A stretch of 64,000 bases of DNA. Origin: Eubacteriales bacterium. Lineage in GTDB: Bacteria > Bacillota > Clostridia > Oscillospirales > CAG-272. The notes below the pieces were generated by a model. The model was not told where the DNA came from. It did no database searches and saw only the letters and a program-made list of their open reading frames with translations. Location: contig JAZRFK010000039.1 in the NCBI GenBank assembly GCA_045661325.1, forward strand, positions 4,563 through 68,562, read 5' to 3'. This document shows positions 1,720 to 30,424 of this stretch, piece by piece; positions within the stretch are counted from its first letter, which is position 1; every line of letters starts with the position of its first letter. The translations under genes and the position numbers were made by a program.

Positions 1720-1739
1720 ATCGGTTTTTCCGTTTCTTT

Positions 1740-2267: not shown

Positions 2268-2426
2268 CAAAAACTTCCCTTCACAAAGAAAAGGCATCCC
2301 TATCTCTTCTGAGACGGCAATGCCTTATGGTATCATTCAAATTAAGATATAGCATGAAAAGGAAAGCTTCTGCTTTCTCATCACTTTACAAAGTGACGCC
2401 GACGATAAGACGCCGATTACGGTAAC

Positions 2427-2455
2427 AGTATAGCATAAGGAGGCGCATTTGTCAA
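2427..2455 (-). promoter_or_regulatory. Sigma-70-type promoter of the ECF-S/kinase unit
   Basis: Minus strand TTGACA (2455-2450), 17-nt spacer, TATACT (2432-2427). Confidence 0.7.
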
Positions 2456-2479
2456 GCGCCTATACGCTTTTTAGAGAGG

Positions 2480-2887
2480 TCAGGCCAAAAGGCTTTTGAG
2501 CTTTTCAACGGCATCGGCTATCAGGGCGCCTGTGTTATAATCGGAAACACCCGCAACATAATTGCCGCATTTGTTCATCGGAATGAGAATACGCACAGCA
2601 TCTGCCTGCCCGACAGCCTCGGCCATTCTCGGCGTTATTTCCCCAAGCAAAGAGTCTGCAATGACAATGCCAATGGGGCCAACGATGACATCGGCCTTGC
2701 GCGAGGCTACCACCAAGGGATTTTCTCCCGTGGCCGCATTTTTTGCGCCCGCCTTTAACATAGCGGCCGTTGCTATGGCATTGGTGCCAACGGCGGTTAT
2801 TTGTACGCCTTGCACCTTCAAAAGAATGTCCTTTATCAGCTGAGCGCCCAAAAGGCCGCCCTGCCCGTCTACCACGACTACGTTCAT
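2480..2887 (-). CDS. Small Gly-rich protein resembling the DUF3842 family, function unknown
   Basis: MNVVVVDGQGGLLGAQL N-terminus and size recalled as DUF3842-like; ATG at 2887 with weak GAGG RBS. Confidence 0.5.
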   Translation of the reverse strand: MNVVVVDGQGGLLGAQLIKDILLKVQGVQITAVGTNAIATAAMLKAGAKNAATGENPLVVASRKADVIVGPIGIVIADSLLGEITPRMAEAVGQADAVRILIPMNKCGNYVAGVSDYNTGALIADAVEKLKSLLA

Positions 2888-2969
2888 ATAAAGCCTCACA
2901 AGATGTTATTTAAGAGGGGGGCGCCTTTGGGGCGCCCCTTTGCTTCGTATTAAATTCGTATTAAATGGG

Positions 2970-5069
2970 TTAAGCCTTCGAGTCGGGGTCGGAGTTATCC
3001 GTTTCCTCTGTCTCGGTTTGCTCCGTGTCCTGCGCCTCGTTCGCATCAAGGTAGCTATCGGTGAAATCTGACGCATCGGCGACAGTCTCTTCCTCGCTTG
3101 CCTTTTCCTCAGCAGCGGCGCGGTTTTCCTCCTCGCTCTGCTTGGCACGCTTTTTCAGCATCAGAAGCAGCTCTTCCTCGGTGGGCGTTTCGTCCTCCAT
3201 GACGTAGAGGAACTGCTCACCGTCCATTACCTCGTATTTCACCAGGTATTCGGCAATAAAGTCGAGCTTGACTCTGTTTTCGGTCAAAACCTTCTTTGCC
3301 AGGGCATATGCCTCGTCAATGATGCGCTTGACCTCCATATCAATCTTATGGGCAGTTGCCTCGGAATAGTTCTTGGTGCTATTGAAATCTCTGCCCAAGA
3401 ACACCTCGGCGTCACTATGCTCGCCACCCAGGAGAATGGTTCCGATTTCCTCGCTCATACCGTAGCGCGTTACCATATCGTGCGCCACGCGTGTTGCGCG
3501 TTGAATATCGTTGGAGGCACCTCCCGAAACATCGCCAAACACAATTTCCTCGGCAGCTCTACCTGCCAACAGCATCGCGATTTTCTCCTTGAGCTGCGAT
3601 TTATACACGCTGACGCGGTCGCGCTCAGGCACGGAGAGGGTGTATCCCAGGGCTCTTCCGCTGGGAACGATAGAGATGCGGCGCACAGGATCCTGCGTGG
3701 GCAACAAATGCGACAAAATGGCGTGACCGCCCTCGTGATACGCGGTGTTTCTCTTTTCGGTCTCGGTCATACGGGAGGTCTTTTTCTCGGTTCCCACCAA
3801 GACCTTCAAGGTTGCCTGTTCAATTTCATTCATACCGATAAGGTTCTTTCCCTTACGGGCCGCCAAAAGCGCCGCCTCGTTGAGAAGGTTTGCCAAATCG
3901 GCACCTGTGAAGCCTGCGGTTGTCTGGGCAATTTTAGCCAAATCCACATCGCCCTCCAAGGGCTTGTTACGCACGTGAACGCGCAGGATGGCTTCTCTGC
4001 CCCTCAAATCAGGATAGTTGACGGTAACCTGTCTATCAAAGCGACCCGGACGCAAAAGCGCAGGGTCCAAAATATCGGGGCGGTTGGTTGCGGCCATCAC
4101 AATGACGCCCTCGTGGGTGCCAAAGCCGTCCATTTCCACCAAGAGCTGATTCAAGGTCTGCTCTCTTTCATCGTGACCGGCGCCAACGCCCGTTCCACGC
4201 TGTCTGCCGACGGCATCAATTTCGTCAATAAAGATAATGCTTGCAGGGCTTCTGCGCGCCGTTTCAAACAAATCACGCACGCGGGAAGCACCGACACCGA
4301 CATACATTTCCACGAAATCGGATCCCGAAATGGAATAGAAGGGAACGCCCGCTTCGCCCGCAACTGCCTTGGCAAGCAGGGTTTTACCCGTTCCGGGAGG
4401 GCCCACAAGCAACACGCCTCTGGGAATTTTAGCGCCCAGACGAACGAATTTTTCGGGATTTTTCAAAAACTCAACAACCTCTTGCAGCTCTTCCTTTTCC
4501 TCGTCTGCACCTGCAACGTCAGCAAACTTGACGGCGTTTTTGGTATCGGCGTTGGTTTTTACCTTGGCGTGTGAGAAGGATCCCATTTTGCCGCCCTTGC
4601 CCGTTGCCTGACGCATCATCACAATCCAGAAGACAACCAAAACGACAGCGATGATAATATAGGGCAAATAGAGCTGATACCAAGGGGCATCCACAGGCTC
4701 CTCATAGTTATAAAAGTGCAAGGTTCCGCCGGGGTTGCTTTCGGTAATCAGGCTTGCCTTGGCAAGCTCGTTGATTTCCTGATACTGCATAGAATTGGAA
4801 AGGCGATAGGTAACGGTTTTGGTTATTTCCTTACCGTCACTGTCCAGCTTAACGCTTCCGTTTTCGTCATACTCGCGCACCTTCATTTTCAACACGTTTG
4901 ACGTGTCCACCTCGAAGGAGTAAACCTCTCCGTTCTCAAAATGCTGAATCACGTCGCTATACGAAAGCGGCGGTGCTTCCTCGCCGTAGCCGGAAAAGAG
5001 GCTTGCTACCAAAACAAAGCCCACCACCAGCACGAGCAGAAAAATAATATTCTTCAAACTAAATTTCAT
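2970..5069 (-). CDS. ftsH: ATP-dependent zinc metalloprotease FtsH
   Basis: N-terminal TM helices, AAA+ Walker [28 protein letters not shown], zinc site HEGGHA, acidic C-terminal tail. Confidence 0.97.
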
Positions 5070-7085: not shown

Positions 7086-8455
7086 GCCTGACCGTAGGGA
7101 GCGGGCGGCTCGGGCAACGAGCTGTCCTCCAAGGAGCGAAACTTGGTAAACTGCGCGTTCCAGCCCATCAACACGCTACCAACGGCACCGTGTCTGTTTT
7201 TGGCGATAATAATCTCCGCAGTATTGGCGGCGGCCGCCTGCGCCTTGGGATCTACGTCCTTATAATATTCATCGCGATACAAGAACAGAACGATATCCGC
7301 GTCCTGCTCGATAGAGCCCGAGTCACGAAGGTCGGAAAGCATCGGCTTTTTCACCGTTCTGCTTTCAGGTCCACGGGAAAGCTGGGCGCAGCAAAGAATC
7401 GGCACGCCGAAATCCTTTGCCATAATTTTGAGGCTTCGGGAAATATCACCGACCTCTTGCACACGATTTTCAATGGATTTTCCGCTTTGCATCAGCTGCA
7501 AATAGTCAATGACCACCATACCGAGATTTTTCACACGGCGCAGCTTTGCCTTCATATCGGTGGGGGTAATGTCTGCCGTATCGTCAATCCAAATGTCGCA
7601 GCCTGCCAAGGAAACGGTGGCGTCGGCAATGTTTTCCCAATCGGTATCGCTGAACTGACCGCTTCGGATAGCGCGGCTATCCACCATCGCCTCACCCGAA
7701 AGCATACGCATTGCCAGCTGCTCGGCGGGCATTTCCAAGGAGAAGCAGGCAACGGCCTTGCCCGTTTTTTTGGCGACCTCAACGGCGATGTTCATCACAA
7801 AGCTCGTTTTACCCATACCGGGACGGGCGCCGACCAAAACCAAGTCACCCTTACCAAGCTGCACCAGAGTGTTATCCAACTCAGAGAAGCCCGTTTTGAC
7901 ACCCGAAACCTCGCCCGGATGCTCGGATTTATACTGCAAGTCCTTATACACGACCTGCATAACCTCGCTGATATGACGGAAATCCTTGGAATCCTGCTTT
8001 TGCGCCACGTCAAAAATCTTTTGAGCGGAGGCGTCAAGAATCGAATCTATCTCTCCGTTTTCCGCATAGGCGGTGGCGCTGATTTCGTCACAAGCGGCAA
8101 TCAGACGGCGCAAAAGCGCCTTTTCCTTGACGATTTTGGCGTAATCAACGATATTGGCCGCAGAGGGCACGCTTTCGGCCAGACTACGCAAATAGGCAAC
8201 GCCCGATTGCTCGTCATACGAGCCACTCTTTACCAAGGTATTCAAAAGCGTAACGGTATCAACGCGACGGCTTTGCAAAAACATCGTCTGCATAGCCGTA
8301 AAAATCTGTCTATGCTCCTCGATATAAAAATCGTCTGCCACAACCTTGCCCGCGATGCTTTCAAAGGACTCGGGTTTAATCAAAACCGAGCCGAGAACGG
8401 CCTGCTCCGCCTCCAACGAGACGGGCAGCTTTTGGGCTCCAAGCTCAAGTGCCAT
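7082..8455 (-). CDS. dnaB: Replicative DNA helicase (DnaB/DnaC type)
   Basis: Walker A GARPGMGKTSFVMNIA, DnaB N- and C-terminal domain layout, directly downstream of rplI. Confidence 0.95.
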   Translation of the reverse strand: MALELGAQKLPVSLEAEQAVLGSVLIKPESFESIAGKVVADDFYIEEHRQIFTAMQTMFLQSRRVDTVTLLNTLVKSGSYDEQSGVAYLRSLAESVPSAANIVDYAKIVKEKALLRRLIAACDEISATAYAENGEIDSILDASAQKIFDVAQKQDSKDFRHISEVMQVVYKDLQYKSEHPGEVSGVKTGFSELDNTLVQLGKGDLVLVGARPGMGKTSFVMNIAVEVAKKTGKAVACFSLEMPAEQLAMRMLSGEAMVDSRAIRSGQFSDTDWENIADATVSLAGCDIWIDDTADITPTDMKAKLRRVKNLGMVVIDYLQLMQSGKSIENRVQEVGDISRSLKIMAKDFGVPILCCAQLSRGPESRTVKKPMLSDLRDSGSIEQDADIVLFLYRDEYYKDVDPKAQAAAANTAEIIIAKNRHGAVGSVLMGWNAQFTKFRSLEDSSLPEPPAPYGQA

Positions 8456-8481
8456 AAAGGTTTCCCCTTTTCTTTCGTAGA

Positions 8482-8925
8482 TTAGTTATGCACAACCAGC
8501 GCGATTTTGCCAACCACACCCTCGTAAAGCTTCACGTTCAAGGAGTAGCTGCCGTAGGATTTGATATTGTCGGACATTTCGATTTTTCTCTTATCCACCG
8601 TTATGCCGAAATCCTTGGCCAAGGCCTCTGCAACGTCCTTGGAGGTTACAGCGCCGTACAGTCTGCCGTCAGCACCCGAGGCAGAGCGAATTTTAACGGT
8701 GATGGTTTCCAAGCGCTCGGCAACGGCCTTTGCGGCCTTGCGCTCCTCCTCAATCTTGAAGCGCTTGGACTCTTCCTTGCCCTTCAAATCGTTGATAGCC
8801 TGATTATCAGCCCGAATGGCAAGCTTGCGCGGCAAAAGGAAGTTGGCGGCATAGCCTTCTGCAACCTCTACCACATCGTCCTTCTTACCCAGGGCCTTTA
8901 CGTTTTGTAACAAAATAACCTTCAT
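8482..8925 (-). CDS. rplI: 50S ribosomal protein L9
   Basis: MKVILLQNVKALGKKDDVVEVAEGYAANFLLPRKLA; start set to ATG 8925. Confidence 0.95.
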   Translation of the reverse strand: MKVILLQNVKALGKKDDVVEVAEGYAANFLLPRKLAIRADNQAINDLKGKEESKRFKIEEERKAAKAVAERLETITVKIRSASGADGRLYGAVTSKDVAEALAKDFGITVDKRKIEMSDNIKSYGSYSLNVKLYEGVVGKIALVVHN

Positions 8926-16954: not shown

Positions 16955-18022
16955 TTAGTCCTCTAACTGATAGGTCCAGCCATAGCTGTCGGGAAGAGTT
17001 CCCCACTGGATACCCGTCAAGGAATTATAGAGATGGGCGGTTACCTCACCGATTTCGCCATTGTTGATGGAATACTTCTTGCCCATATAGCAAAGTTCGC
17101 CAATGGGAGAGATAACAGCGGCAGTACCGCAGCCCCAAGCCTCCTCAAGCTTGCCCTCCTCCAAAGCCTTTGCCAGCTCGTCAATGCTCAAGCGGCGCTC
17201 GCTGACGCGATAGCCCTCGGCGCGCAAAAGCTCCAAGCAGGATTTTCTGGTGATACCGGGAAGAATAGATCCGAGAAGCGAAGGGGTAACAACCTCGCCG
17301 TCAATCTTGAACATAACGTTCATAGCGCCGACCTCTTCGATGTACTTGCGCTCAACACCGTCAAGCCAAAGAACCTGCGACTAGCCTGCCTTTCCGGCCT
17401 TCTCACCTGCACGGTTGGAAGCGGCATAGTTACCGCCGCACTTGGCCTCACCGGTACCGCCACGAACGGCACGAACGTCATCTGCCTCGATCATAATCTT
17501 AACGGGGTTAATGCCCTCCTTGTAGTAGCTGCCTACGGGGGAGGTAATGATAACGAAGGTTGCGTGCTTTACCGCGTGCACACCCAAGGTTTCATCGTTT
17601 CCGCACATAAAGGGTCGGATATAAAGGGAGGTGCCGGGGGCAGGGGGCGTCCAATCCTGCTCAAAGGCAATAAACTTGGTTAAAACCTCCATTGCCAAAT
17701 CCTCGGGAATGGTGGGCAGGCAAAGTCTGTCTGCCGAGCGATTCATACGGCGAATGTTCTCGATGGGACGGAACATCTGCACCTTTCCGTCGGCACGGCG
17801 ATAGGCCTTTAAGCCCTCGAAGATTTCGCTTCCGTAATGAAGCGCGGTGCAAGCGGGATGGATAGCCAAGGGGCCAAAGGGAACGATTCTTGCGTCATGC
17901 CAGCCCTCCTCGACAGAATAGTCCATCATAAACATATGGTCGGTAAAATACTTGCCGAAGCCGAGAACAGAAGGCTCGGGCTTTACCGCGGGATTCGGGT
18001 TTCTCGTAATTTTGATTTCCAT
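16955..18022 (-). pseudogene. ilvE: Branched-chain amino acid aminotransferase interrupted by one in-frame TAG (17381-17383)
   Basis: Track ORFs 17381..18154 and 16955..17323 are in the same frame. Translation reads ...GNYAASNRAGEKAGKAG[TAG][28 protein letters not shown]..., colinear with IlvE. ATG 18022 with AAGGAG RBS. Confidence 0.75.
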
Positions 18023-18038: not shown

Positions 18039-18581
18039 TTAGCCCTGATAGTCCTTGCCAAGACGCATAGCGCCGAGGTTGACATCCAGCATATCCGCAC
18101 GCTTGGCGGAGATAACCTTTTTAAGTGCAGCCAGAACCTTCTCTTCATCCTCAAAGGCGCCGCTTTCTGCCAAAACCTTACCCATGATAATCATATTGGC
18201 GAGAGTGGGCGTTTTGTTGTCGGATGCCATCTGGGTGGCAGGGATATAATGCACCGTCACATCGGTACGGTTAACCTTGCGGGAAATGAGGGTGGAATCC
18301 ACGTAAATGGTGCCGCCGGGAGCAACGCTGGACTCATACTTGTCCAAGGAGGGCAGGTTCATCGCAATCAGAACGTCGGGATTCGATACGATGGGAGAGC
18401 CAACGGGAATATCGCTGATGATAACGCTACAGCTTGCCGTACCACCGCGCATTTCGGGACCGTAGGAGGGCAACCAGCTGACGTTTTTGCCGTCATTGAG
18501 GCCCTGGTAAGCTAAGAACTTGCCTGCGAACAGGATGCCCTGTCCACCGAAGCCTGCAAACAAATACTGGGTCGTTTTCAT
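18039..18581 (-). CDS. 2-oxoacid:ferredoxin oxidoreductase gamma subunit
   Basis: [14 protein letters not shown] and [11 protein letters not shown] motifs; ATG 18581 with AAGGAGG RBS. Confidence 0.85.
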
Positions 18582-18594
18582 TTCTGCTTCCTCC

Positions 18595-19338
18595 TTACTT
18601 TCCTGCGCTTCTATCCTTATACACCCCAAGAGGATAATAAGGAATCATTTTTTCATCAATACAAGCCAAAGCCTTTGCAGGCGTCATACCCCAGTTGGTC
18701 GGGCAAGAGGAAACAACCTCTACCAAGGAGAAGCCTTTTCCGTTGACCTGGTTTTCAAAGGCCTTTTTGATAGCCTTCTTGGCATTCTTGACGTTCTTGA
18801 CGTTGTTAACGGCAACACGCTCCAAATACTCGGGGCCGTCCAGCTGAGAAAGCATTTCGCAAACCTTGATGGGATAGCCGCAATGAGAAACGTCACGTCC
18901 GTAGGGAGAGGTCTGGGTGACCTGACCGGGCAAGGAGGTGGGAGCCATCTGACCGCCCGTCATACCGTAAATGGCGTTGTTGATGAAGATAACGGTGATG
19001 TTTTCGTTTCTGGCGGCGCTATGTACCGTTTCTGCCATACCGATGGAGGCAAGGTCGCCGTCACCCTGATAGGTGAATACGATGTTATTGGGGTCGGAGC
19101 GCTTAACGCCCGTTGCAACGGCAGGTGCTCTACCGTGAGCGGCCTCAATCATATCACAGTTAAAGTAGTCGTATGCCATAACCGAGCATCCAACGGGGGC
19201 AATACCAATGGTTCTTCCCTCAATACCAAGCTCGTCCATTACCTCGGCAACCAGACGATGCACGATGCCGTGGGTACAACCGGGGCAATAGTGTAAGGGT
19301 GCATCGGAAAGCGCATGGGGTTTATCAAATACTACCAT
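18595..19338 (-). CDS. 2-oxoacid:ferredoxin oxidoreductase beta (TPP-binding) subunit
   Basis: HYCPGCTHG Cys motif, GDGD TPP-binding region; ATG 19338 with AAGGAGG RBS, 1 nt after the alpha stop. Confidence 0.88.
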
Positions 19339-19339
19339 T

Positions 19340-20401
19340 TCAGTTACCTCCTTTATCGGCGGCCTCAATAGCGGCCAGCACCTCTTCGGGCGAAGGAATC
19401 ATACCGCCCGCTCTGTTGCAAAGAGTGACGGGGGCCTTGCCGTTGACGGCCAGGCGAACGTCCTCAATCATCTGACCCATAGAAAGCTCAACGGACACGA
19501 AGGCTTTAACCTTTTCGGCCGCTGCGGCAAACTGCTTCTTGGGGAAGGGCCAAAGCGTGATGGGACGAATCATACCCACCTTAATGCCCTTGGCTCTTGC
19601 CTCGTTGATGGCGTTCTTGGAAACACGGGCGGCGATACCAAAGGCGGCCACGCAGATTTCCGCATCCTCCATCATATATTCCTCGTAGAGAACCTCGTTC
19701 TCCTCGATGTACGCATACTTCTCGTAGCGCTCAAAGTTGGTTTTTTCCAGCTCTTCGGGCTTCAAGAACAGAGAGTTGACGATGTTATGGGGTCTTTCAA
19801 GCTTGGTACCCGTCACAGCCCAAGGCTTTGCGGGAGCCTCCTCAATATCAAAGGAGAGAGAAACGGGCTCCATCATCTGACCCATCGTGCCGTCTGCCAG
19901 AATCATAGAGGTCATACGGTACTTGTCTGCCAGGGCAAAGCCCTTCACCGTCAGCTCTGCCATTTCCTGCACGGAGGCAGGCGCCAGAACCAACATATGA
20001 AAGTCGCCGTGTGCGCCACCCTTGGTTGCCTGGAAATAGTCGCTCTGAGAGGGCTGAATACCGCCAAGTCCGGGGCCGCCGCGCTGAACGTTTACGATGA
20101 GAGCGGGAAGATCCGCGCCTGCCAGATAGGAGATGCCCTCGCCCTTCAAGGAAATTCCGGGGCTGGAGGAGGAGGTCATCACGCGCTTGCCCGTTGCGGA
20201 AACGCCGTACACCATATTGATGGCGGCGATTTCACTTTCGGCCTGCAAGAAGGTGCCGCCGATTTTGGGCATTCTTTTTGCCATATAAGCAGCAATTTCG
20301 GTTTGGGGGGTAATGGGATAGCCAAAGTAATGACGGCAGCCTGCGATGATGGCCGCCTCGGCAATGGCTTCGTTGCCTTTCATTAATACCTTATCAGACA
20401 T
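19340..20401 (-). CDS. 2-oxoacid:ferredoxin oxidoreductase alpha subunit (KorA/VorB type)
   Basis: [31 protein letters not shown]-terminus typical of OFOR alpha subunits. Confidence 0.88.
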
Positions 20402-20408
20402 TGCTTTT

Positions 20409-20615
20409 TCACCTTTCTACCTTAATGATACAGTCGGGACACATCGTGGCGCAGAAGGCGCAGCCGATGCACGCTTCCTCGTTCACAGCCTTAACGGGAT
20501 GGTGACCCTTTTGGTTAATGGTTTCGGCATCAAGCGCCAGAACCTGCTTGGGACAAGCATCAACACAAAGGCCACAGCCCTTGCATTTTTCAAATTTAAA
20601 GGTTAATTTTGCCAT
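20409..20615 (-). CDS. OFOR delta subunit, 2x[4Fe-4S] ferredoxin
   Basis: CKGCGLCVDACP and CIGCAFCATMCP motifs in 68 aa; AAGGAG RBS. Confidence 0.85.
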   Translation of the reverse strand: MAKLTFKFEKCKGCGLCVDACPKQVLALDAETINQKGHHPVKAVNEEACIGCAFCATMCPDCIIKVER

Positions 20616-20626: not shown

Positions 20627-21286
20627 TTACATTCGTTTTTGTAATAATATAGGACGGTAGCTATCGCTCTCGGCCGAAAAATACTGCCAAAGCGACTCGT
20701 GCACCGTGGTATACAAAAATGGAATTTGGGCGGCGGCGGCAACCTCCTTGGCGAAGGCAACCGATCCGCGCACATCCTCTTCGGTGGTTTCCGCACCGAG
20801 ATTGGAATTGTTAATCAGGGCGGTAAAGCGAAGGCCGGAGGCCGCCTCAATCTCGTTCATAACGGTCAAAGCACCGTCAAGATCACGCGTCAAGGGACGA
20901 TAGCCGTTCAAGACGAATATCATCTGGTAATCGTTCTCCTCCTTGATGGCAGGAACGAGTCTACCAAGTGCCAAAGCCCCTCTTTCGTCACCTCCCACAT
21001 CCAGCACGGCGCGAAACGATTTATCGTCTGTCACGGCGTAAATTTCAGCGGGAAGCGCGGGAATGTCAACGTTACTGTTGGCATACGCCGAGCAGATAAG
21101 GCGAACGTCTCGCTCCTTCAAGAGCGCTTCACTGTCCTTCGTGCGAAAATAGGGATTGACAATATCGATATCGGCGATAATCACCTTTTCGTGCGTCTTT
21201 CGCAGAGAGAGCGCGTAATTCACTGCGATGTTGGTTTTTCCGCTACCGTAGTGACCCGAAAAAATCGTTATTCGTTTTTCCTGCAT
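20627..21286 (-). CDS. P-loop NTPase (MinD/ParA/CooC-like), function unknown
   Basis: Walker A FSGHYGSGKTNIAVN close to the N-terminus; GGAAGGAG RBS; sits between acyl-CoA synthetase and OFOR genes. Confidence 0.55.
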   Translation of the reverse strand: MQEKRITIFSGHYGSGKTNIAVNYALSLRKTHEKVIIADIDIVNPYFRTKDSEALLKERDVRLICSAYANSNVDIPALPAEIYAVTDDKSFRAVLDVGGDERGALALGRLVPAIKEENDYQMIFVLNGYRPLTRDLDGALTVMNEIEAASGLRFTALINNSNLGAETTEEDVRGSVAFAKEVAAAAQIPFLYTTVHESLWQYFSAESDSYRPILLQKRM

Positions 21287-21325: not shown

Positions 21326-23611
21326 TTATAAAAGATTTCTTTGGATTTTTCCCGTGGCCGTCTTGGGAAGCGCATCACGGAAAACAATAATTCTGGGGTA
21401 TTTATAGGGCGCAGTATGCGTCTTGACGTAATCCTGAATTTCCTTGACAAGCTCGGGCGAGGGCTCTGTTCCCTTCACCAGAACGATGCTGGCCTTGACA
21501 ACCTGGCCTCTGACCTCGTCAGGTGCGGCAGAGACGCCGCATTCCAGAACGTACGGCAGCTCCATAATGACGCTTTCAATCTCGAAGGGCCCGATGCGGT
21601 AACCGGAGGACTTGATAACGTCATCCACGCGGCCAACGTACCAATAGAAGCCGTCCTCATCGCGCCAAGCCACGTCACCCGTATGGTAATAGCCGTCGTG
21701 CTTAACCTCGCGCGTCTTTTCCTCATCGTGATAATACTCGTCAAAGAGACCGCAGGGAGAACCGTTTTCAATCTTGATAACGATTTCGCCCGATTCACCG
21801 ACAGGAACACGACTGCCGTCTGCGGCAAGCAAATCCACGTCATAAATGGGAGCAGGCTTACCCATCGAACCGATTTTATGAGGCGCACCGCGCATATTTC
21901 CGATTATCATCGTGCTTTCGGACTGGCCGAAGCCCTCCAAAATCTGAATGCCCGTTGCCTCCTCGAATTGACGGTAGACCTCGGGGTTTAAGGCCTCGCC
22001 CGCCGTTGTCATATGCTTGACGGAGGAGAGATCGTACTTGGAGATATCCTCCTTGACCATCATACGAAGCATGGTCGGAGGCGCGCAGAAGGTGGTGATT
22101 TGATATTTGGCAAACATAGGCAGAATATCGTCTGCGTGGAAGCGCTCGAAATCGTAAACGAAGGTTGCCGCCTCGCAGAGCCATTGGCCGTAAAGCTTGC
22201 CCCAGAGTGCCTTGGCCCAACCTGTATCCGAAATGGTAAAGTGCAAGCCGTCCGAATCGACGTTATGCCAATACTTTGCGGTATGGAAATGGCCCAAGGG
22301 ATATTTGTGATTATGTACGGCGATTTTGGGATAGCCCGTGGTACCCGAGGTAAAGAACATCAAAAGCGTGTCATTACCGCAGGGGGTATCGGCGGTGCGC
22401 TCAAAATGGGTACTGTAAAGGACGCATTCCTCGTCAAAGCTGCGCCAGCCGTCCTTTTCGCCGCCAACCATAATTTTAATGAGCTTTTTGTCTAACTGCG
22501 CCTCGGCCTTGTCGACCTCCGTGCTGACGCCGCCTCTTCCCGTACAGAGAATGGCCGAAACGCCTGCCGCCTTGAAGCGATATTCAAAATCGTGGTCAAG
22601 CAGCTGATTCATAGCGGGAATGGCGATAGCGCCCAAGCGGTGCAGACCCAGCATTGCGTACCAGAACTGATAGTGTCTGCCCAGAACCAGCATTACGCGG
22701 TCGCCCTTTTTGATACCGAGCGACTTGAAATAGTTGGCCGCACGGCAGGAATTTTTCTTGATGTCGGAAAAAGAGAGTCTGGTTTCCGTTTTATCGTTCG
22801 CCACGTGCAAAAGCGCAAGCTTGCCCGGCTCCTTTTCCGCGATTTTATCCACCACGTCGTAGGCGAAGTTAAAGGTATTCTCGTTTTTGAAGGTGATGGA
22901 GGTGGGGGTGCCGTTTTCGTCCTCCTCGGTATCCACAAATGCGGAGTATACTCTTTCCTTTTCGTCACGCTTGGCCGGACGGCTTTGCACCGCACGAGAG
23001 GGCTGAAGCTCGGGAATGGGCTCGCCCGTGGGATTCAATACAATAGCGTAGAAGCGACAGTCCTCTCCCTCAACGGCTATCATACCGTGGGGCGTGGAGC
23101 TATCGTAATAAATGCTGTCACCGGGGCCAAGAATCTCCACGTGAGAGCCGATTTGCACCTTCAAGTGACCGCTCAACACAATGTCGCACTCCTGACCGTC
23201 GTGCGTGGTTAATTCTATGTCTCTTACCTGCGCCTTTTCGCTATAACGGCTGCACACGTAAAGAGGCTCGGCAATACGGTTTCGGAAAGCAGAGGCCAGG
23301 TTGAAATAGGTCATTCCGTGCGCCTCTTCAATGCGCTGTCCCTGTCCGCTTCTCGTTAAGGTATAAGATTTCAGAGTCGGGCTTTTACCCTCGATAATAT
23401 CCGTTACATCCACGTTGAAGGCGGAGGCACAACGGTAGATAAAGGCAAAGTTCAAGTCCGATTCGCCGTTCTCACAGGCAAGATATTCTGCCTCGGCTAC
23501 GCCCGTTTTGGCGGCCATTTCCGCCACCGTCAAGCCCTCGATTTCGCGAAGCTCACGGATACGGCTTGCCATTTCCTTTATTTTCAAATCAAGTCCCGTA
23601 ATTCCTTGCAT
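21326..23611 (-). CDS. HTH(XRE)-cupin domain fused to an AMP-forming acyl-CoA synthetase (paralog 1)
   Basis: N-terminal HTH (LTVAEMAAKTGVAEAEY), cupin (GDSIYYDSSTPHGM), then adenylation core FFTSGTTGYPK, YHTGD, SSGYRIGPFEIES, PKTATGKIQR. Start set to ATG 23611 (GGAGG RBS), because the longer ORF overlaps the leader terminator. Confidence 0.85.
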   Translation of the reverse strand: MQGITGLDLKIKEMASRIRELREIEGLTVAEMAAKTGVAEAEYLACENGESDLNFAFIYRCASAFNVDVTDIIEGKSPTLKSYTLTRSGQGQRIEEAHGMTYFNLASAFRNRIAEPLYVCSRYSEKAQVRDIELTTHDGQECDIVLSGHLKVQIGSHVEILGPGDSIYYDSSTPHGMIAVEGEDCRFYAIVLNPTGEPIPELQPSRAVQSRPAKRDEKERVYSAFVDTEEDENGTPTSITFKNENTFNFAYDVVDKIAEKEPGKLALLHVANDKTETRLSFSDIKKNSCRAANYFKSLGIKKGDRVMLVLGRHYQFWYAMLGLHRLGAIAIPAMNQLLDHDFEYRFKAAGVSAILCTGRGGVSTEVDKAEAQLDKKLIKIMVGGEKDGWRSFDEECVLYSTHFERTADTPCGNDTLLMFFTSGTTGYPKIAVHNHKYPLGHFHTAKYWHNVDSDGLHFTISDTGWAKALWGKLYGQWLCEAATFVYDFERFHADDILPMFAKYQITTFCAPPTMLRMMVKEDISKYDLSSVKHMTTAGEALNPEVYRQFEEATGIQILEGFGQSESTMIIGNMRGAPHKIGSMGKPAPIYDVDLLAADGSRVPVGESGEIVIKIENGSPCGLFDEYYHDEEKTREVKHDGYYHTGDVAWRDEDGFYWYVGRVDDVIKSSGYRIGPFEIESVIMELPYVLECGVSAAPDEVRGQVVKASIVLVKGTEPSPELVKEIQDYVKTHTAPYKYPRIIVFRDALPKTATGKIQRNLL

Positions 23612-23635: not shown

Positions 23636-23901
23636 ACAAAAAAAGCCCGCCACAAAGATAAATACTTTGAGACGAGCTTGCTAATCAAAACCCGCGGTAC
23701 CACTCAAATTGCGGCAGATGCCGCCCCTCAGGGTCAATCAACCCGTATGCACTAACGCAGCAAACGCGGAGAGGTTCTACTCGATTCTCTTTCTTCCTCT
23801 CGGCTCGGAAGCTACAAACAGGAGGCAGCATTTAGCGACTCACACCAACCGTCGCTTCTCTGAAAAAGCCGCGTTCCTACACTCTTCGTCAACGCCTTTA
23901 T
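23636..23901 (-). promoter_or_regulatory. T-box leader, specifier read as GUA (Val)
   Basis: Minus strand: stem I base GGC-GTTGA-C-GAAG ... CTTC-C-GA-GCC (GA/K-turn), AGAGA bulge, distal loop GGTTGGTG. T-box AATTTGAGTGGTACCGCGGG (23710-23691). Terminator AGCTCGTCTCAAAG / CTTTGTGGCGGGCT + T7. Specifier GTA (23815-23813) followed by purine G directly before the CTTC helix. Confidence 0.8.
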
Positions 23902-23981: not shown

Positions 23982-26249
23982 TTAGAGCTTGTTTCTCTGA
24001 ATCTTGCCGCTGATGGTTTTGGGAAGCTCCGTGCGGAATTCCACAATACGCGGATACTTATAGGGCGCGGTATGCTCCTTGACGTAATTCTGGATTTCCT
24101 TTTTCAATGCCTCTGTTGGCTCGGTTCCCTTCACCAAGACGATGCTGGCCTTGACAACCTGGCCTCTGACCTCGTCGGGTGCGGCAGAGACGCCGCATTC
24201 CAGAACGTACGGCAGCTCCATAATGACGCTTTCAATTTCAAAGGGCCCGATGCGGTAGCCGGAGGATTTGATAACGTCATCCACGCGGCCAACGTACCAA
24301 TAATATCCGTCCTCGTCACGCCAAGCGGTGTCACCCGTATGGTACAAGCCATCGTGCCAGGCATCCGCCGTTTTTGCGTCATCACGGTAATATTCTCTGA
24401 AAAGACCGCAGGGAATGCCCTTATCCGTATGGATAACGATTTCACCGATTTCACCCGCAGGAAGCGATTTTCCATCGGCATCGACAACATCTACGTCATA
24501 TTGGGGATTTGCCTTACCCATAGCGCCGATTTTGGGAGTTGTGCCGTAAAGATTTGCAATAGCAAGGGTGGTTTCCGTTTGACCGAAGCCCTCCATAATT
24601 TCAAGACCCGTTGCCGTTTTGAACTGGTTGAACACCTCGGGGTTCAACGCCTCGCCTGCGGTGGTCATATGATGAATGGAGGACAAATCAAATTTGGAAA
24701 GATCGCCGCGAATAAGCATTCTGAGCATCGTGGGCGGTGCACAGAAGGTGGTGATATTGTACTCTGCAAACATAGGAAGCAGATCGTTTTCATCAAACCT
24801 ATCGAAGTCATAGACGAAAACGGCGCCCTCGCAGAGCCACTGACCGTACAGCTTACCCCACAGGGATTTGCCCCAGCCCGTATCGGAAATGGTTAAATGC
24901 AAGCCGTCACGCTCGCAGCAATGCCAATATTTAGCCGTTACGTAATGACCCAAGGCGTAGGTATGCTTATGCGCCGCCATTTTGGGATTGCCCGTGGTAC
25001 CCGAGGTGAAGAACATCAGCGCAAGGTCATCTCCTGCGGAGCAGTCCTCGGGGCGCTCGTACTTGCTGGAAAACAGCTTATACTCCTTATCAAAGTCAAG
25101 CCAGCCGTCCTTGACGCCGCCAACCATCAAAAGCTTTTCCACCTGAGGACATTTCTTGGCGGCACTTTGTGCATAGGTATAGGTATCTCCGTCAGCGGTG
25201 CATACGATGGCCTTGACCCCTGCGGAATTGTATCTGTACTCAAAATCGTGTTCCTTTAACTGATTCGTTGCGGGAATGGCAATCGCGCCCAGCTTATGAA
25301 GAGCCACCATACAGAACCAGAACTGATAATGACGCTTTAAGACCAACATAACCTTATCGCCCCGCTTGATGCCCAAGGAGGTGAAATAGTTTGCCACCTG
25401 GTTAGATGCCTTCTTGATGTCCTTAAAGGTAAAGCGTCGCTCGTTCTTGTTTCTGTCAAGGTGAAGCATGGCGAGCTTCTCGGGATAGCTATCGGCAATG
25501 CCGTCAACGATGTCGAAGCCGAAGTTAAAGCTTTCGGTGTTTTTGAAGCGAATGCTTTGCAGCTGTCCGTTTGCATTTTCCTTAACGTCAAGGAATTTTT
25601 CGCAAACCAGTGCCTCGCTCTTTTTAGCGGCAATAACGCTTTTTCTGACAACCGTTTCATTGGAATTGTCGCCCGACATAACCACCGCAACGAAGGTACA
25701 GTCCTTGCCGTCAACGGCAATCATTCCGTGCGGAATAGAGGAATTGTAGTAGATGCTATCGCCCTCCTCCAAGACCTCGGTATGCTCGCCGACTTGAATT
25801 TTCAGCTTGCCGTTTAAAACAAGGTCAAACTCCTGACCGCTGTGCGTGGTCAGATGAATGGGCTTATTTTGCTGCGATTGAGAATATTCGTAGGTTACGT
25901 AGTAGGGCTCTGCGAGCTTATCCTTGAACTTGGGCGCCAGGTTGGCAATATCAATGCCGTCCTCCTTGGCAGTTCCCTGTCCCTTGCCCTTTCTCGTCAC
26001 CGTATAGGTAGAAAGCTTTGCCGTGCTACCCTCCAGAAGCTCCGTCATTTCAACGCCGAAGGCCAGCGCACATTTATGGATAAAGGAGAACGGAATATCC
26101 ACCGTACCGCTTTCATAAGAAAGATAGGTAGACTCGTCCACATCGGTTTTTTGCATCATATCGTTTACGGAGAAGCCCATAATTTCGCGCAGCTCTTTGA
26201 TTCGAGTTGCGATTTCCGATAACTGACTTAAAGTGTTGTTTGTATTCAT
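23982..26249 (-). CDS. HTH(XRE)-cupin domain fused to an AMP-forming acyl-CoA synthetase (paralog 2)
   Basis: Same architecture as paralog 1: HTH, cupin (GDSIYYNSSIPHGM), FFTSGTTGNPK, YHTGD, PKTISGKIQR; ATG 26249 nine nt after AAGGAGG. Confidence 0.85.
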   Translation of the reverse strand: MNTNNTLSQLSEIATRIKELREIMGFSVNDMMQKTDVDESTYLSYESGTVDIPFSFIHKCALAFGVEMTELLEGSTAKLSTYTVTRKGKGQGTAKEDGIDIANLAPKFKDKLAEPYYVTYEYSQSQQNKPIHLTTHSGQEFDLVLNGKLKIQVGEHTEVLEEGDSIYYNSSIPHGMIAVDGKDCTFVAVVMSGDNSNETVVRKSVIAAKKSEALVCEKFLDVKENANGQLQSIRFKNTESFNFGFDIVDGIADSYPEKLAMLHLDRNKNERRFTFKDIKKASNQVANYFTSLGIKRGDKVMLVLKRHYQFWFCMVALHKLGAIAIPATNQLKEHDFEYRYNSAGVKAIVCTADGDTYTYAQSAAKKCPQVEKLLMVGGVKDGWLDFDKEYKLFSSKYERPEDCSAGDDLALMFFTSGTTGNPKMAAHKHTYALGHYVTAKYWHCCERDGLHLTISDTGWGKSLWGKLYGQWLCEGAVFVYDFDRFDENDLLPMFAEYNITTFCAPPTMLRMLIRGDLSKFDLSSIHHMTTAGEALNPEVFNQFKTATGLEIMEGFGQTETTLAIANLYGTTPKIGAMGKANPQYDVDVVDADGKSLPAGEIGEIVIHTDKGIPCGLFREYYRDDAKTADAWHDGLYHTGDTAWRDEDGYYWYVGRVDDVIKSSGYRIGPFEIESVIMELPYVLECGVSAAPDEVRGQVVKASIVLVKGTEPTEALKKEIQNYVKEHTAPYKYPRIVEFRTELPKTISGKIQRNKL

Positions 26250-26274
26250 AACGAACACCCTCCTTAAAAATTTT

Positions 26275-26537
26275 AAAAAAACAAAACCCGCCCCAAAGAA
26301 AAATCTTTGAGGCGGGTGAAAACACTCGCGGTACCACTCAAATTGCGCCGAAACGCCACTTTACGAAGTCCAACAACTTCTGCACACTAACGCTGTGCTC
26401 CTCGTGAAGCCCTACTGCTTTCAGGCTCCAGGCTCGGAAGTGATAGGGTTTTCTCTCTGCGCTACGGCTCGCACCAACCGCCGTTTCTCTTGGCCGCTAT
26501 CCGAGAAGCCCGTCTTCGTCATTGCCTTTTTCAATTT
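26275..26537 (-). promoter_or_regulatory. T-box leader, specifier read as AUC (Ile)
   Basis: Minus strand: GGC-AATGA-C-GAAG ... CTTC-C-GA-GCC, AGAGA bulge, GGTTGGTG distal loop. T-box AATTTGAGTGGTACCGCGAG (26344-26325). Terminator ACCCGCCTCAAAGA / TCTTTGGGGCGGGT + T-run. Specifier ATC (26444-26442) followed by A before the CTTC helix. Confidence 0.8.
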
Positions 26538-26543
26538 GGTAAG

Positions 26544-26572
26544 ATTGTATCACACTTAAACGGGTTTGTCAA
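26544..26572 (-). promoter_or_regulatory. Promoter of T-box(Ile) leader
   Basis: TTGACA (26572-26567), 17 nt, TACAAT (26549-26544). Confidence 0.7.
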
Positions 26573-26858
26573 GTGTTTTTTTGATATTTTTTGACCAAAA
26601 AAGGCAAGAAGGCCAAGGGAACAAATTATCGTTGTGAAAAAGAGAAAAAGTGACGGCCGTGCCAAACACTTTTTTAATTCTAAAAGGAAAGCATCAGCCC
26701 TGTTTCCGAAAAGAAACGCCATCACTATCGAAAGCATAACCTCTAAAACATCTGTTCTGTCGAAATGCGTTTAAACTCCCCGTAACCTTGACAAAAGTTT
26801 CATTGACAAATGGCGGGGAGAGCGCGAAAAAATAAAACATCTTTTTTCCTTGATTTGC

Positions 26859-26886
26859 TTGACAAAACGCACGCAGATGGTATAAT
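26859..26886 (+). promoter_or_regulatory. Promoter of the 701-aa gene
   Basis: TTGACA (26859-26864), 16 nt, TGgTATAAT extended -10 (TATAAT 26881-26886). Confidence 0.7.
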
Positions 26887-26943
26887 GAGGGTGTAAGAAA
26901 ACCCCAAAAATTCAGGACATTCCTGGTAAAAAAGGAGTATGGT

Positions 26944-29049
26944 ATGAGAACCGAGCAGAATTACGATTTTCAGCGTGAGCTTTTGACGGTGCATGAGCCT
27001 CACTTGCAAGACGAAAGCCGCACAAAGAGGGCAGACGAGCTTTGGCTCTCTGACGGTGCGCGCATTCGCATTGATGCAAATGCCTCTGAGGTAATAGCTG
27101 TTGCCGCCGCCGATTTTTGTGATTATCTCTCCGTTTCGATGGGTGTCAAGGCATCCGTTGTGACCGAGGGTGAGGGCGACGTGACCGTTCGTCTCGCCGC
27201 CGACGTGGGCGTGGATCTCGGCGAGTTTGCCGCTTACAAGGGCTTCCGTATCGAGACCGACAAGGACGGCATCGTCATCACCGCGCACGATGACAGAGGT
27301 GCGGGACAGGCACTCTTCTATATTGAAGACCTTATGACCTTTGAGGGCGCGCCCTGTCTTGCCTACGGCAAGATCGAAAAGCGTGCCATGTACACTCCGC
27401 AGATGGTACATTCAGCGTACGATATTGACGAATTTCCCGATGAGTACATCGCGCGCATTGCTCACGAGGGACGAGATGCACTTCTCATCTTTACCAAGGG
27501 CGTTGGCATCTCCGCGCGCGGTGAGGAGGACTTTAACGATCTCATCCGCCGCGCCGCACGTTACGGTGTTGATGTGTATGCATACAGCAAGATCAAGAGT
27601 GAAAAGCACCCCGACGATCCCGATGCGGAAGAATACTACGACAGCACCTACGGTGAGCTGTTCCGCCGCTTCCCTGGACTTCGCGGCGTGACGCTGGTTG
27701 GCGAGTCCATTGGATTTCCCTCCAAGGACACTCGTTCCGGTCCGTGGCACAACCCCGACGGTATCCCTTCCGGAAAGACGCATCCCGGATTTTTCCCCTG
27801 CTACGATTATCCCGAATGGATGAATATGCTCAAAAACGCCATCCGCCGTGTTAAGCCGGACGCTGACATTGTTCTTTGGACATATAACTTTGGCTGGTGC
27901 TCGAAAGAAGAGCGTGTCAAGCTTATTGAGTCACTCCCCACCGACATCTCCCTCAACGTCACCTTTGAGATGTACGAGTTTAAGCCGTGCGGTAATTCGC
28001 TCATCAAGTGCTGTGACTATACCCTTGCCTTTGAGGGCCCCGGTTCTTATTTTGCGAGCGAGGCAGAGGTGGCAAAGCGCCGTGGCATCCGCCTCTATTC
28101 TATGACCAACACGGGCGGCAGAACCTGGGACTTTGGCGTTGCTACCTATGAGCCGATGCCTTATCAGTGGATGCGCCGTTACGCCGCCATGAGCCGTGCA
28201 CAGAAGGATTGGGGACTTTCCGGTATTATGGAAAGCCACCACTTCGGCTTCTATCCCTCCATCATTACCAAGCTTTCCAAGCACGCCTTTATGCTCCCCG
28301 AGGAGAATTATGAGGAGCTTCTTGATAAGATCTTAAAGGCTGAATACGGAAAAGAGAACCTTGAAAGCGCCAAGGCAGCGCTTGCCGATTTCAGCGAGGC
28401 TATCCGCTACTATACCCCCACCGAGTCGGATCAGTACGGTGCGCTCCGTGTCGGTCCTGCACATCCCTTCAATCTGGCGCAGACCATCAAGATCCCCTCT
28501 GATCCCAACTCGATGTTTGCTGACCGCATCTGGAAGCCCAAGTACCTGACCACCATTGTCGGACACTGGCTCACATCCGTCTCTCCTCAGGCGATCCGTG
28601 TTCGTGAGGAGGCAAAGTCGATGCAGACCATGCTTTCCCTGATGGAGTCGGGTATTGCCAAGCTGGCCGCCGCTCCTGTGCAAAATGCAAAGCTCGTCCG
28701 CCTTGCAGGGCTTGGACAGTTTATCGCCAACTCCGTCAAGACGGGTATCGCCGCAAAATATTTCCACCTGCTCGATGCAGAGTTGAAGGTTGCTACTGAT
28801 ATTGACAGACAGAAAGCTATCTGCGACGAGATGGAGGCCATCCTTCTTGCAGAGCGTCAAAATGCTCTCGATACCATTCCGCTCGTTGAAGCGGACTCTT
28901 CGCTCGGCTACGAGCCCTCCATGCACTATATGTGCGACAAGGAACACCTTGAATGGAAAATTCGCCATACCGACTACGTTCTCGGCATCGAGATTCCCGA
29001 GCTTCGCGCTTCCATCAAGACCCATGAGGAATTTTTGAAAAAGCAATAA
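26944..29049 (+). CDS. Hypothetical 701-aa protein, putative glycoside-hydrolase-like (GH20b-like N-terminal domain)
   Basis: Long clean ORF with AAGGAG RBS; N-terminal segment VRLAADVGVDLGEFAAYKGFRIETDKDGIVITAHDDRGAGQALFYIEDL resembles the accessory domain of hexosaminidase-type enzymes; catalytic family not recognised. Confidence 0.45.
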   Translation: MRTEQNYDFQRELLTVHEPHLQDESRTKRADELWLSDGARIRIDANASEVIAVAAADFCDYLSVSMGVKASVVTEGEGDVTVRLAADVGVDLGEFAAYKGFRIETDKDGIVITAHDDRGAGQALFYIEDLMTFEGAPCLAYGKIEKRAMYTPQMVHSAYDIDEFPDEYIARIAHEGRDALLIFTKGVGISARGEEDFNDLIRRAARYGVDVYAYSKIKSEKHPDDPDAEEYYDSTYGELFRRFPGLRGVTLVGESIGFPSKDTRSGPWHNPDGIPSGKTHPGFFPCYDYPEWMNMLKNAIRRVKPDADIVLWTYNFGWCSKEERVKLIESLPTDISLNVTFEMYEFKPCGNSLIKCCDYTLAFEGPGSYFASEAEVAKRRGIRLYSMTNTGGRTWDFGVATYEPMPYQWMRRYAAMSRAQKDWGLSGIMESHHFGFYPSIITKLSKHAFMLPEENYEELLDKILKAEYGKENLESAKAALADFSEAIRYYTPTESDQYGALRVGPAHPFNLAQTIKIPSDPNSMFADRIWKPKYLTTIVGHWLTSVSPQAIRVREEAKSMQTMLSLMESGIAKLAAAPVQNAKLVRLAGLGQFIANSVKTGIAAKYFHLLDAELKVATDIDRQKAICDEMEAILLAERQNALDTIPLVEADSSLGYEPSMHYMCDKEHLEWKIRHTDYVLGIEIPELRASIKTHEEFLKKQ

Positions 29050-29092: not shown

Positions 29093-29914
29093 TTAATCGG
29101 GAATTTCGGTGTATTTTACACGCTCGATCCATTTTCGTAGGAAGTATTCACTCGATAGCCCAACGCCCATCTCAGCGTTGCATTCGAAGATCATGCCATC
29201 AAGGCGACCTTCCTTCATCAGCTTAAGTCCGTACTCGCACTGGAATTCCATCTGCTCATTGGAAAGCGGCTCTCCTGCTTCAAAGTCGTACATATAAATG
29301 CCAAGCAGCTTTTTCTTATCCGGAAAGCTTTTTTCGATCTTTTCAAAACGCTCGGGAAGCTCGGGCAGCTCCTTCGAGTTCCAGGTCCAAAGGGTGAGTC
29401 CATCGATGTATTGCATAAGGCGCGGCTCAACCATTTCAAATTCCAGCGTGTACCATACCACGTAAAGCTCCATAGGGCGACACGCCTTGTCAAGCCCCGC
29501 GCGAACCTCCTTGAGAAGCGCCTCGGCGCGCTCGGTCATATCGGGCAGACCGCGGAACTTGAGCAGAAAGTCATCCATAAATGCACCGGCAATATTGGGG
29601 TATTTCTCCGCAAGATCGCAAACAAATGCCTCCTCATTTCCAACGCGGAAGCCGTGAGAGCCGGTGACGCCCCACAAGACTTTATCCATGCGGCAAAAGC
29701 TCTCGGCATAGCCGTAGGCATCGTTTGAGAAGGGGACGGGAATGCCGTCACAGTTGATCATCAGCATATTGGGAATATCCAACATAAACGCGCCCTCTGC
29801 GGGCGTGATGCGCGAGGTGGTGCATCTGCGGTTGTTGAAGCTTCTTCCCAGCCAAGGGTCGTCCTGATGCGCTCGAACACCAAACATCCAAAATTTGTCT
29901 TTTGCAATCGCCAT
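29093..29914 (-). CDS. Hypothetical 273-aa protein
   Basis: ATG 29914 (MAIAKDKFW) preceded by AAGGAGG; no family recognised. Confidence 0.5.
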   Translation of the reverse strand: MAIAKDKFWMFGVRAHQDDPWLGRSFNNRRCTTSRITPAEGAFMLDIPNMLMINCDGIPVPFSNDAYGYAESFCRMDKVLWGVTGSHGFRVGNEEAFVCDLAEKYPNIAGAFMDDFLLKFRGLPDMTERAEALLKEVRAGLDKACRPMELYVVWYTLEFEMVEPRLMQYIDGLTLWTWNSKELPELPERFEKIEKSFPDKKKLLGIYMYDFEAGEPLSNEQMEFQCEYGLKLMKEGRLDGMIFECNAEMGVGLSSEYFLRKWIERVKYTEIPD

Positions 29915-30032
29915 AGGTTGATATCCTCCTTGTTTTAGCGGTTCACATCGCCGTCCGCGCGAAGCACCGCACTGTTGAGAATATGGGCATCGTCTGAGCA
30001 AAGGAAGCTTGCCAAAAGGCCATCATAAAAGT

Positions 30033-30064: not shown

Positions 30065-30140
30065 TGGTGGAGCATAGGGGATTCGAACCCCTGACCCCAA
30101 CACTGCCAGTGTTGTGCGCTCCCAACTGCGCTAATGCCCC
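30065..30140 (-). tRNA. tRNA-Ala (anticodon GGC), CCA encoded
   Basis: Hand-folded cloverleaf, 76 nt: acceptor GGGGCAT/ATGCTCC with the G3:U70 Ala identity pair, anticodon loop CTGGCAG, T-loop TTCGAAT. Confidence 0.9.
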
Positions 30141-30349: not shown

Positions 30350-30424
30350 GGCCCGTTGGTCAAGCGGTTAAGACGTTAGCCTCTCACGCTGAAAACATGG
30401 GTTCGATTCCCGTACGGGTCACCA
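30350..30424 (+). tRNA. tRNA-Glu (anticodon CTC), CCA encoded
   Basis: Hand-folded, 75 nt: acceptor GGCCCGT/ACGGGTC, anticodon stem TTAGC/GCTGA, loop CTCTCAC, T-arm ATGGG-TTCGATT-CCCGT. Confidence 0.88.

Follow-up and report, generated by a model that had tools for sequence, protein, structure and literature searches.

The stretch of DNA considered here, called the window, comprises 64,000 nucleotides of contig JAZRFK010000039.1 from a Eubacteriales bacterium, and the element in question is a T-box leader that lies ahead of a gene encoding a fusion-type acyl-CoA ligase. This gene, termed ligase 1, is followed by its paralog, ligase 2, and each of them is preceded by a promoter and a T-box leader of its own. 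Both proteins carry an N-terminal module composed of a helix-turn-helix (HTH) and a cupin domain. Further downstream, the cluster contains genes for a P-loop NTPase, a 2-oxoacid:ferredoxin oxidoreductase (VOR), and a branched-chain aminotransferase (BCAT). All of these features are located on the minus strand, to which every coordinate below refers unless the plus strand is named. As a whole, the locus very probably represents a promoter and a class-I (transcription-attenuating) T-box specific for tRNA-Ile(GAU), placed ahead of a branched acyl-CoA ligase in an operon that supplies branched-chain amino acids (BCAA).

Anatomy and conservation of the leader ahead of ligase 1

In a preliminary description of the interval 26275-26572, a series of T-box motifs had been listed, and all of them are found, in T-box order, when the minus strand of 26100-26750 is read. 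Besides the leader, this interval includes a strong sigma-70-type promoter, P1 (26572-26544), which consists of a -35 element TTGACA (26572-26567), a 17-nt spacer and a TG-extended -10 element TACAAT (26549-26544), and which obtains a promoter score of 11/12, with TG. Almost all orthologous leaders have a comparable promoter (TTGACA-17-TAnAAT) ahead of them, and conservation among 116 orthologous promoters is limited to the -35, TG and -10 elements. An operator palindrome, ACAcTT-N13-AAGTGT, spans both promoters of the window and was considered as a candidate target of the HTH module. Its lack of conservation across the 116 orthologous promoters led to its rejection.

The leader, numbered T-box leader no. 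2 in the window, extends over 26305..26531 as matched by the Rfam T-box model. Its Stem I (26431..26526) is formed by the strands GGC-AATGA-C-GAAG (26526-26514) and CTTC-C-GA-GCC (26440-26431), which provide a basal helix GGC/GCC, a K-turn made of AAUGA (26523-26519) and the 3' GA (26435-26434), and a helix GAAG/CUUC. Stem I also contains an AG bulge, AGAGA (26490-26486), and a distal loop, GGUUGGUGCGA (26479-26469), in which the motif GGTTGGTG occupies 26479-26472; both the bulge and the loop are near-invariant in 70 aligned leaders of ligase-1-type genes. The specifier read in the Rfam register is AUC (26442..26444), an isoleucine codon, with A (26441) and then CUUC next to it on the 3' side. 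Stem II (26406..26429; GGAGCC...GGCUUC) has a GAA/AGUA-type loop, and behind it stand Stem IIA, an extra hairpin and Stem III (together 26345..26398), with an F-box-like GCGUUA at 26393-26388, the hairpin at 26380-26365 and Stem III at 26356-26345.

The 3' part of the leader contains the T-box sequence, AAUUUGAGUGGUACCGCGAG (26344-26325), which was listed previously as the motif AATTTGAGTGGTACCGCGAG and whose core, GAGUGGUACCGCG, is essentially invariant in the aligned leaders. The antiterminator (26308..26340) holds most of this sequence together with a 7-nt bulge, UGGUACC (26336-26330), in which UGGU would pair with the ACCA at the 3' end of the tRNA; presumably, the bulge U would match the discriminator A73 of tRNA-Ile. 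The intrinsic terminator (26271..26317) consists of a 14-bp hairpin (26317-26286), with the arms ACCCGCCTCAAAGA and TCTTTGGGGCGGGT, and a U-run behind it. The 5' arm of the hairpin doubles as the 3' arm of the antiterminator, as positions 26317-26308 are common to both. The terminator folded alone has an energy of -25.6 kcal/mol (z = -6.25), as opposed to -9.9 kcal/mol for the antiterminator folded alone. A weak antiterminator facing a strong terminator is the usual arrangement in T-boxes, in which the tRNA acceptor end is needed for the antiterminator to win. The ribosome binding site of ligase 1, AAGGAGGG, is located at 26265-26258, and the ATG start codon at 26249. In effect, the leader displays the K-turn, the platform of AG bulge and distal loop, the UGGN antiterminator and the mutually exclusive terminator that define T-boxes, as well as a codon on the 3' side of the specifier loop that is followed by one base and then by a helix. 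Thus, the structural hallmarks that can be checked from sequence are all present, except for the S-turn consensus of the specifier loop.

The search with the Rfam model RF00230 (T-box; 219 positions) that had been suggested previously returned a full-length match (model 1-219) at 26531-26305, with a score of 80.6 bits and E-values of 6.5e-18 in a permissive local scan and 7.5e-16 over the entire window. This match lies far beyond chance and confirms the observation. For this model, Rfam sets a curated gathering score of 93 bits, which is an operational cut-off and not a structural feature. Because the score of this leader is under that threshold, a default Rfam scan of the window lists a single T-box, at 23901-23665 (98.5 bits), which belongs to ligase 2; no T-boxes beyond these two were found when the whole window was scanned with RF00230. 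Among ten scanned loci with orthologous leaders, five pass the gathering score, at 99.8-103.7 bits. The shortfall is therefore attributed to the copy in the window and to its compact specifier loop, and the leader is best described as a lower-scoring member of an orthologous T-box group. This case illustrates that a genuine T-box can score under the Rfam gathering cut-off and escape default annotation.

Orthologous loci were collected by two scans of GTDB species-representative genomes, with ligase 1 and ligase 2 as queries, and 160 loci were obtained. Their hosts are nearly all gut or rumen Clostridia known as metagenome-assembled genomes (MAGs), labelled Christensenellaceae, Acutalibacteraceae, Oscillospiraceae and similar. 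The structure of the window's leader was projected onto the alignment of 70 ligase-1 leaders, in which 86.2% of cells hold a base pair, compared with 33-51% in a control with the partners slid. Double-sided changes occur in 32 of the 47 pairs, and none of 500 shuffles reached the observed values. The basal helix is 97.6% paired, with GC/AU/UA compensatory changes, and such changes are also found in the distal and specifier-flanking helices. Pairing reaches 97-98% in the extra hairpin and Stem III, with many double changes, and 100% in the lower helix of the antiterminator. Covariation is weaker in Stem II because this variable region aligns poorly. Together with the RF00230 alignment, this pattern upholds the earlier identification of the element as a T-box, and the leader is very likely a functional attenuator responsive to isoleucine, as judged from its conserved architecture.

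The identity of the specifier is equally consistent across species. After removal of duplicates, AUC is present in 121 of 121 resolvable distinct ligase-1 leaders, and the 112 resolvable distinct ligase-2 leaders carry GUA (109) or GUC (3); a further 13 leaders could not be parsed and are outside these counts, and contradictory cases number zero. In the 70 aligned ligase-1 leaders, the A-T-C columns are invariant, the preceding base may be U, C, A or G, and the following base A, C or G. The switch between GUA and GUC is synonymous, as expected of a codon selected for valine, and thereby provides independent confirmation of valine for the other leader. When 123 full-length proteins were clustered by average linkage on identity distances, two clusters emerged, which coincide exactly with the two specifier classes. 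The correspondence between clade and specifier is one-to-one in 233 distinct leaders without exceptions. Both the earlier reading of the specifier as AUC followed by A and the proposal that the tandem paralogs are wired to different tRNAs agree with these data, and support is strong both for the predicted isoleucine assignment and for the separate wiring of the paralogs.

Uncharged cognate tRNA is the signal by which T-boxes turn on their genes, and a mechanism for this leader may be proposed from its anatomy combined with established knowledge of such elements. Transcription would start at P1 and proceed through the leader, where the AG-bulge/distal-loop platform of Stem I would dock the tRNA elbow, with the specifier AUC reading the anticodon of tRNA-Ile(GAU). 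An uncharged tRNA would pair through its free 3' ACCA with UGGU, stabilizing the antiterminator and allowing transcription into ligase 1. With a charged tRNA, the 14-bp terminator would form instead, and transcription would stop at the U-run.

The operon and its predicted pathway

Ligase 1 (23982..26249; 755 aa) comprises the Pfam domains HTH_3/HTH_19, Cupin_2, AMP-binding and AMP-binding_C, and ligase 2 (21326..23611; 761 aa) has an identical four-domain architecture. Between the two genes, promoter P2 (23908..23936; TTGACA-17-TAATAT with TG) serves the second of the two leaders, namely T-box leader no. 1 (23665..23901; 98.5 bits), in which GUA (23815-23813), followed by G, occupies the same register as AUC in the isoleucine leader. 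Ligase 2 is followed by a P-loop NTPase of 219 aa (20627..21286), a ParA/MinD/ApbC-like protein and a conserved member of the operon. The oxidoreductase gene set (18039..20615) encodes a ferredoxin-like delta subunit of 68 aa with 2x[4Fe-4S] (20615-20409), an alpha subunit of the VorB subfamily (20401-19340), a beta subunit (19338-18595) and a gamma subunit (18581-18039). The last gene is a branched-chain aminotransferase of the ilvE type II (16955..18022), both halves of which match BCAT models and which is interrupted by an in-frame TAG (17383-17381). The alpha subunit passes the VorB model NF005507 for 2-oxoisovalerate:ferredoxin oxidoreductase alpha subunits (541.3 bits; cut-off 399), which is a subfamily-level model and leaves the range of 2-oxoacids unfixed.

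The arrangement found in the window, T-lig1-T-lig2-Ploop-fer4-vorA-vorB-vorG-ilvE, is the commonest architecture among the 160 loci. In more than 100 loci, the P-loop NTPase gene keeps its place after the ligase and ahead of the ferredoxin-VOR genes; its product has weak matches only, to ParA/MinD and to ApbC/Mrp-type Fe-S carriers, and may help in the maturation of VOR clusters.

The gene content suggests a route from branched acids to amino acids. Ligase 1 would convert 2-methylbutyrate to 2-methylbutyryl-CoA, which would then undergo reductive carboxylation by the ferredoxin-dependent VOR, giving 2-keto-3-methylvalerate, and the aminotransferase would turn this compound into isoleucine. Ligase 2, under its own promoter and the valine GUA T-box, would open the same route from isobutyrate to valine. 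Given the logic of T-box control and the set of an AMP-forming ligase, VOR and BCAT, the biosynthetic reading is the most economical one, and it is likely that the operon makes BCAA from branched acids. The direction of the pathway is deduced from this regulatory logic only; the T-box specifiers imply that VOR runs biosynthetically.

Several loci depart from the common architecture. Eight of them have a lone ligase-1-type gene followed by the P-loop-VOR genes, some with ilvE between, and are without ligase 2; the isoleucine T-box ahead of the lone ligase was confirmed in five of these eight. In another locus without ligase 2 (L040), a weak T-box match of 30.6 bits (8360-8676), with GUA in the specifier register, lies directly before ilvE-Ploop-VOR, and no T-box was detected ahead of ligase 1 in that locus.

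Additional T-boxes accompany the isoleucine leader in other genomes. In L029 (~50-4165), L055 (1430-5622) and L057 (1470-5600), a leucine (CUC) T-box is located just 5' of the isoleucine T-box, scoring 107-126 bits in the latter two, and a 106-bit T-box match occupies the same relative position in L031 (1551-1789). In L055, the leucine T-box precedes a LeuA-like protein of 462 aa (HMGL-like and LeuA_dimer) with an atypical N-terminal motif, as well as an 824-aa protein in which a xylose-isomerase-like TIM barrel is fused to an AMP-binding ligase. This arrangement may constitute a leucine/isovalerate branch. One operon with an isoleucine T-box, ligase 1, ilvE and VOR is found in a Sphaerochaetaceae bin (L073; JAEDOD010000052.1), and the occurrence of a T-box in a spirochaete bin suggests either a binning error or horizontal transfer.

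On the other side of P1, a divergent plus-strand promoter (TTGACA-16-TATAAT with TG; 12/12) stands ahead of a 701-aa open reading frame (ORF) at 26944-29049 (region 26859-29049). Neither this plus-strand ORF nor a 302-aa ORF on the minus strand (29093-30001) gave a Pfam match. Beyond them lie two divergent tRNA genes, tRNA-Ala(GGC) at 30065-30140 on the minus strand and tRNA-Glu(CUC) at 30350-30424 on the plus strand; no genes for tRNA-Ile or tRNA-Val were found within the window.

Proposed specialization of the two ligases and alternative explanations

The ligase domain (residues 234-753) is closest to PDB 3ETC, with an E-value of 8e-192 over a full-length alignment. The protein in this structure, the medium-chain acyl-CoA synthetase MacsMa of Methanosarcina acetivorans, prefers 2-methylbutyrate as substrate (PMC10455477). 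Among NCBIfam models, that of the methylbutyryl-CoA synthetase MbcS (NF047394) scores best for the two ligases, with 453.9 and 431.7 bits, and neither reaches its equivalog cut-off of 850 bits. On this basis, the ligases are classified as short branched-chain acyl-CoA synthetases related to MbcS, and not as its orthologs.

To describe how the paralogs differ, 132 distinct ligase-1-type sequences were compared with 115 of the ligase-2 type. Twenty positions are conserved inside each clade yet different between the clades. Those in the ligase domain are G460/A466 and L463/M469, both in the motif SDTGW[G/A]K[S/A][L/M]WG, G475/A481, and L562/M568, which follows GQTET. The SDTGW motif can be aligned gap-free with ADVGWVTGHSY of Salmonella Acs, so that Gly460 of ligase 1 and Ala466 of ligase 2 correspond to Val310, next to Trp309. 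In Acs, Val310 belongs to the four residues lining the acetate pocket. Glycine is found at this position in the isoleucine-wired clade and in MacsMa, and alanine in the valine-wired clade; as alanine adds one methyl group to the pocket, it would fit a substrate one carbon shorter. In view of this Gly/Ala difference at an acyl-pocket position, the kinship to MacsMa and MbcS, and the presence of VOR and an aminotransferase in the operon, a real specialization of the two ligases, for 2-methylbutyrate and isobutyrate, respectively, as suggested in the preliminary description, is plausible and favored with some confidence.

The remaining 16 of the 20 discriminating positions fall in the N-terminal HTH-cupin module (25560-26249 and 22900-23611; ~230 codons), where the divergence of the paralogs is thus mainly concentrated. 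A structural model of the module (pLDDT 77) retrieved only generic two-domain HTH and cupin proteins in a fold search, such as the 1Y9Q regulator and HppE/HEPD, at TM ~0.36-0.39, and no ligand could be inferred from this search. A protein search for stand-alone HTH-cupin homologs detected none and gave mostly contig-end fragments of the same fusion. It can be speculated, mainly from the 16 clade-separating residues, that the module is a second, paralog-specific sensor, for instance for the amino acid produced or the acid consumed, acting as an allosteric gate or through DNA binding. If so, each branch would be under dual control, by tRNA charging through the T-box and by a small molecule through the fusion domain.

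Several observations weigh against the interpretation given above, and they bear on it at different levels. For the leader itself, the score is under the curated cut-off, several non-canonical pairs of Stem I are marked in the Rfam alignment, and the specifier loop is atypical: the AGUA/GAA S-turn consensus expected by the Rfam model cannot be recognized in it, nothing but AC makes up its 5' strand, and AUC is followed by C instead of the usual purine in 45 of the 121 orthologs (~37%). Furthermore, a search for near-identical public sequencing runs yielded only runs with ~5% of the sampled words, these being DNA contigs. A decayed T-box, or one with a register-shifted specifier such as UAU, CAU or UCA, and hence unresponsive to tRNA-Ile, would account for the low score, the non-canonical pairs and the atypical loop; nevertheless, it is highly improbable, as A-U-C alone is invariant while its flanks vary, the helices on either side of the specifier loop covary, the element retains an intact promoter, terminator and T-box sequence, and orthologs score above the threshold. 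The specifier of the isoleucine leaders has a covarying helix, GG(N)/(N)CC, immediately next to it, and the 3' strand of the loop reads N-AUC-N. At the level of the operon, the in-frame TAG splits the ilvE product into 213 and 141 aa; this codon encodes Tyr (12) or Phe (2) in related loci, and either one nonsense mutation of TAC/TAT or a fault of the assembly would explain the TAG. It is also awkward for independent control by isoleucine that VOR, the P-loop gene and ilvE, which both amino acids would require, sit only behind the valine T-box. Neither a terminator after ligase 1 nor a promoter-like site before the P-loop gene was found in a scan of the window, and because the VOR genes stand solely behind the valine T-box, isoleucine-limited transcripts that pass the isoleucine T-box would still meet the valine terminator. 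Possible explanations are that basal read-through from the strong P2 is enough, that other genomic copies exist, or that both limitations usually coincide. The ligases might, alternatively, feed branched acyl-CoA primers to membrane fatty-acid synthesis or take part in amino-acid fermentation. VOR enzymes also run oxidatively in amino-acid fermenters. The best curated family, MbcS, serves lipid synthesis in S. aureus (PMC10026030). This explanation is nonetheless quite unlikely, since induction by uncharged tRNA makes sense for supplying an amino acid but not for catabolism or lipid priming, a branched-chain aminotransferase gene closes the operon, and AMP-forming ligases work towards acyl-CoA, which is the substrate of reductive carboxylation.

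The substrate assignment of the ligases faces a more serious competitor. Both T-boxes could be real and the ligases redundant for both acids, the duplication providing two amino-acid inputs (OR logic) or a regulatory difference in the N-terminal module. The ligase domain holds only 4 of the 20 discriminating positions, as opposed to 16 in the HTH-cupin module, and operons with a single ligase exist, in which the isoleucine T-box alone stands ahead of the ligase and VOR. In addition, the characterized relative MbcS selectively activates both 2-methylbutyrate and isobutyrate, using isovalerate poorly (PMC10026030), so two enzymes are not strictly required. On the other hand, the match of clade and specifier, strict in 233 distinct leaders from many species, speaks against redundancy. 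Within the ligase domain, the differences are concentrated in the A4 motif, which lines the acyl pocket. Their direction is the expected one, with glycine, also present in MacsMa, for the C5 acid, which is larger, and alanine for the C4 acid. Redundancy is consequently regarded as the less likely of the two, though a real contender, and specialized ligases, each induced by the shortage of its own amino acid, are preferred. This preferred reading predicts tRNA-specific antitermination, reciprocal kinetics of the ligases, and a Gly/Ala switch in the acyl pocket.

Comparison with known systems

It has long been known that anaerobes of the rumen and gut require or use isobutyrate, 2-methylbutyrate and isovalerate to form valine, isoleucine and leucine, and the genes of the activation step and their regulation are poorly assigned in many uncultured Clostridia. 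The T-box specifiers described here act as an internal annotation, connecting one ligase clade with isoleucine and the other with valine in more than 100 species-level genomes. The specifier codon would thereby be a built-in substrate label for a widespread and uncharacterized gut route that turns branched-chain fatty acids into amino acids. With respect to reductive carboxylation as known in such anaerobes, the gene set of an acid ligase, VOR delta, alpha, beta and gamma subunits, and BCAT corresponds to the needs of the pathway. The hosts found here, MAGs of gut and rumen Clostridia, match the setting of the classical physiology of branched-acid carboxylation.

Among characterized ligases, MacsMa (3ETC) shares with the present enzymes a glycine where Acs has Trp414, the tryptophan of AKYW, and the glycine at the position of Gly460 in ligase 1. 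It differs in being without the N-terminal HTH-cupin module and, as an archaeal protein, without a T-box. MbcS of S. aureus likewise is without the HTH-cupin module; it is encoded by a single gene and feeds fatty-acid synthesis.

As for regulation, the leader shares with transcription-attenuating T-boxes the parts of Stem I, Stem II, Stem IIA/B, Stem III, the UGGN bulge, and the mutually exclusive antiterminator and terminator. The ileS (AUC) and valS (GUA) leaders of B. subtilis presumably use the same specifiers as the two leaders of the window. A link between T-boxes and acyl-CoA synthetases, VOR or fusion ligases was found nowhere in the full-text literature searched, whose coverage is incomplete and includes two surveys of T-box regulons; the riboswitch class is known, and the target pathway apparently is undescribed. 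Unlike usual T-boxes, the leader has a compact specifier loop without the S-turn consensus, and a pyrimidine after the codon is frequent in its orthologs. The cluster combines two serial T-boxes with different specifiers, each having its own promoter. Finally, the usual targets of T-boxes are aminoacyl-tRNA synthetases, ilv/leu genes or transporters, whereas here the element precedes an operon of acyl-CoA ligases and VOR.

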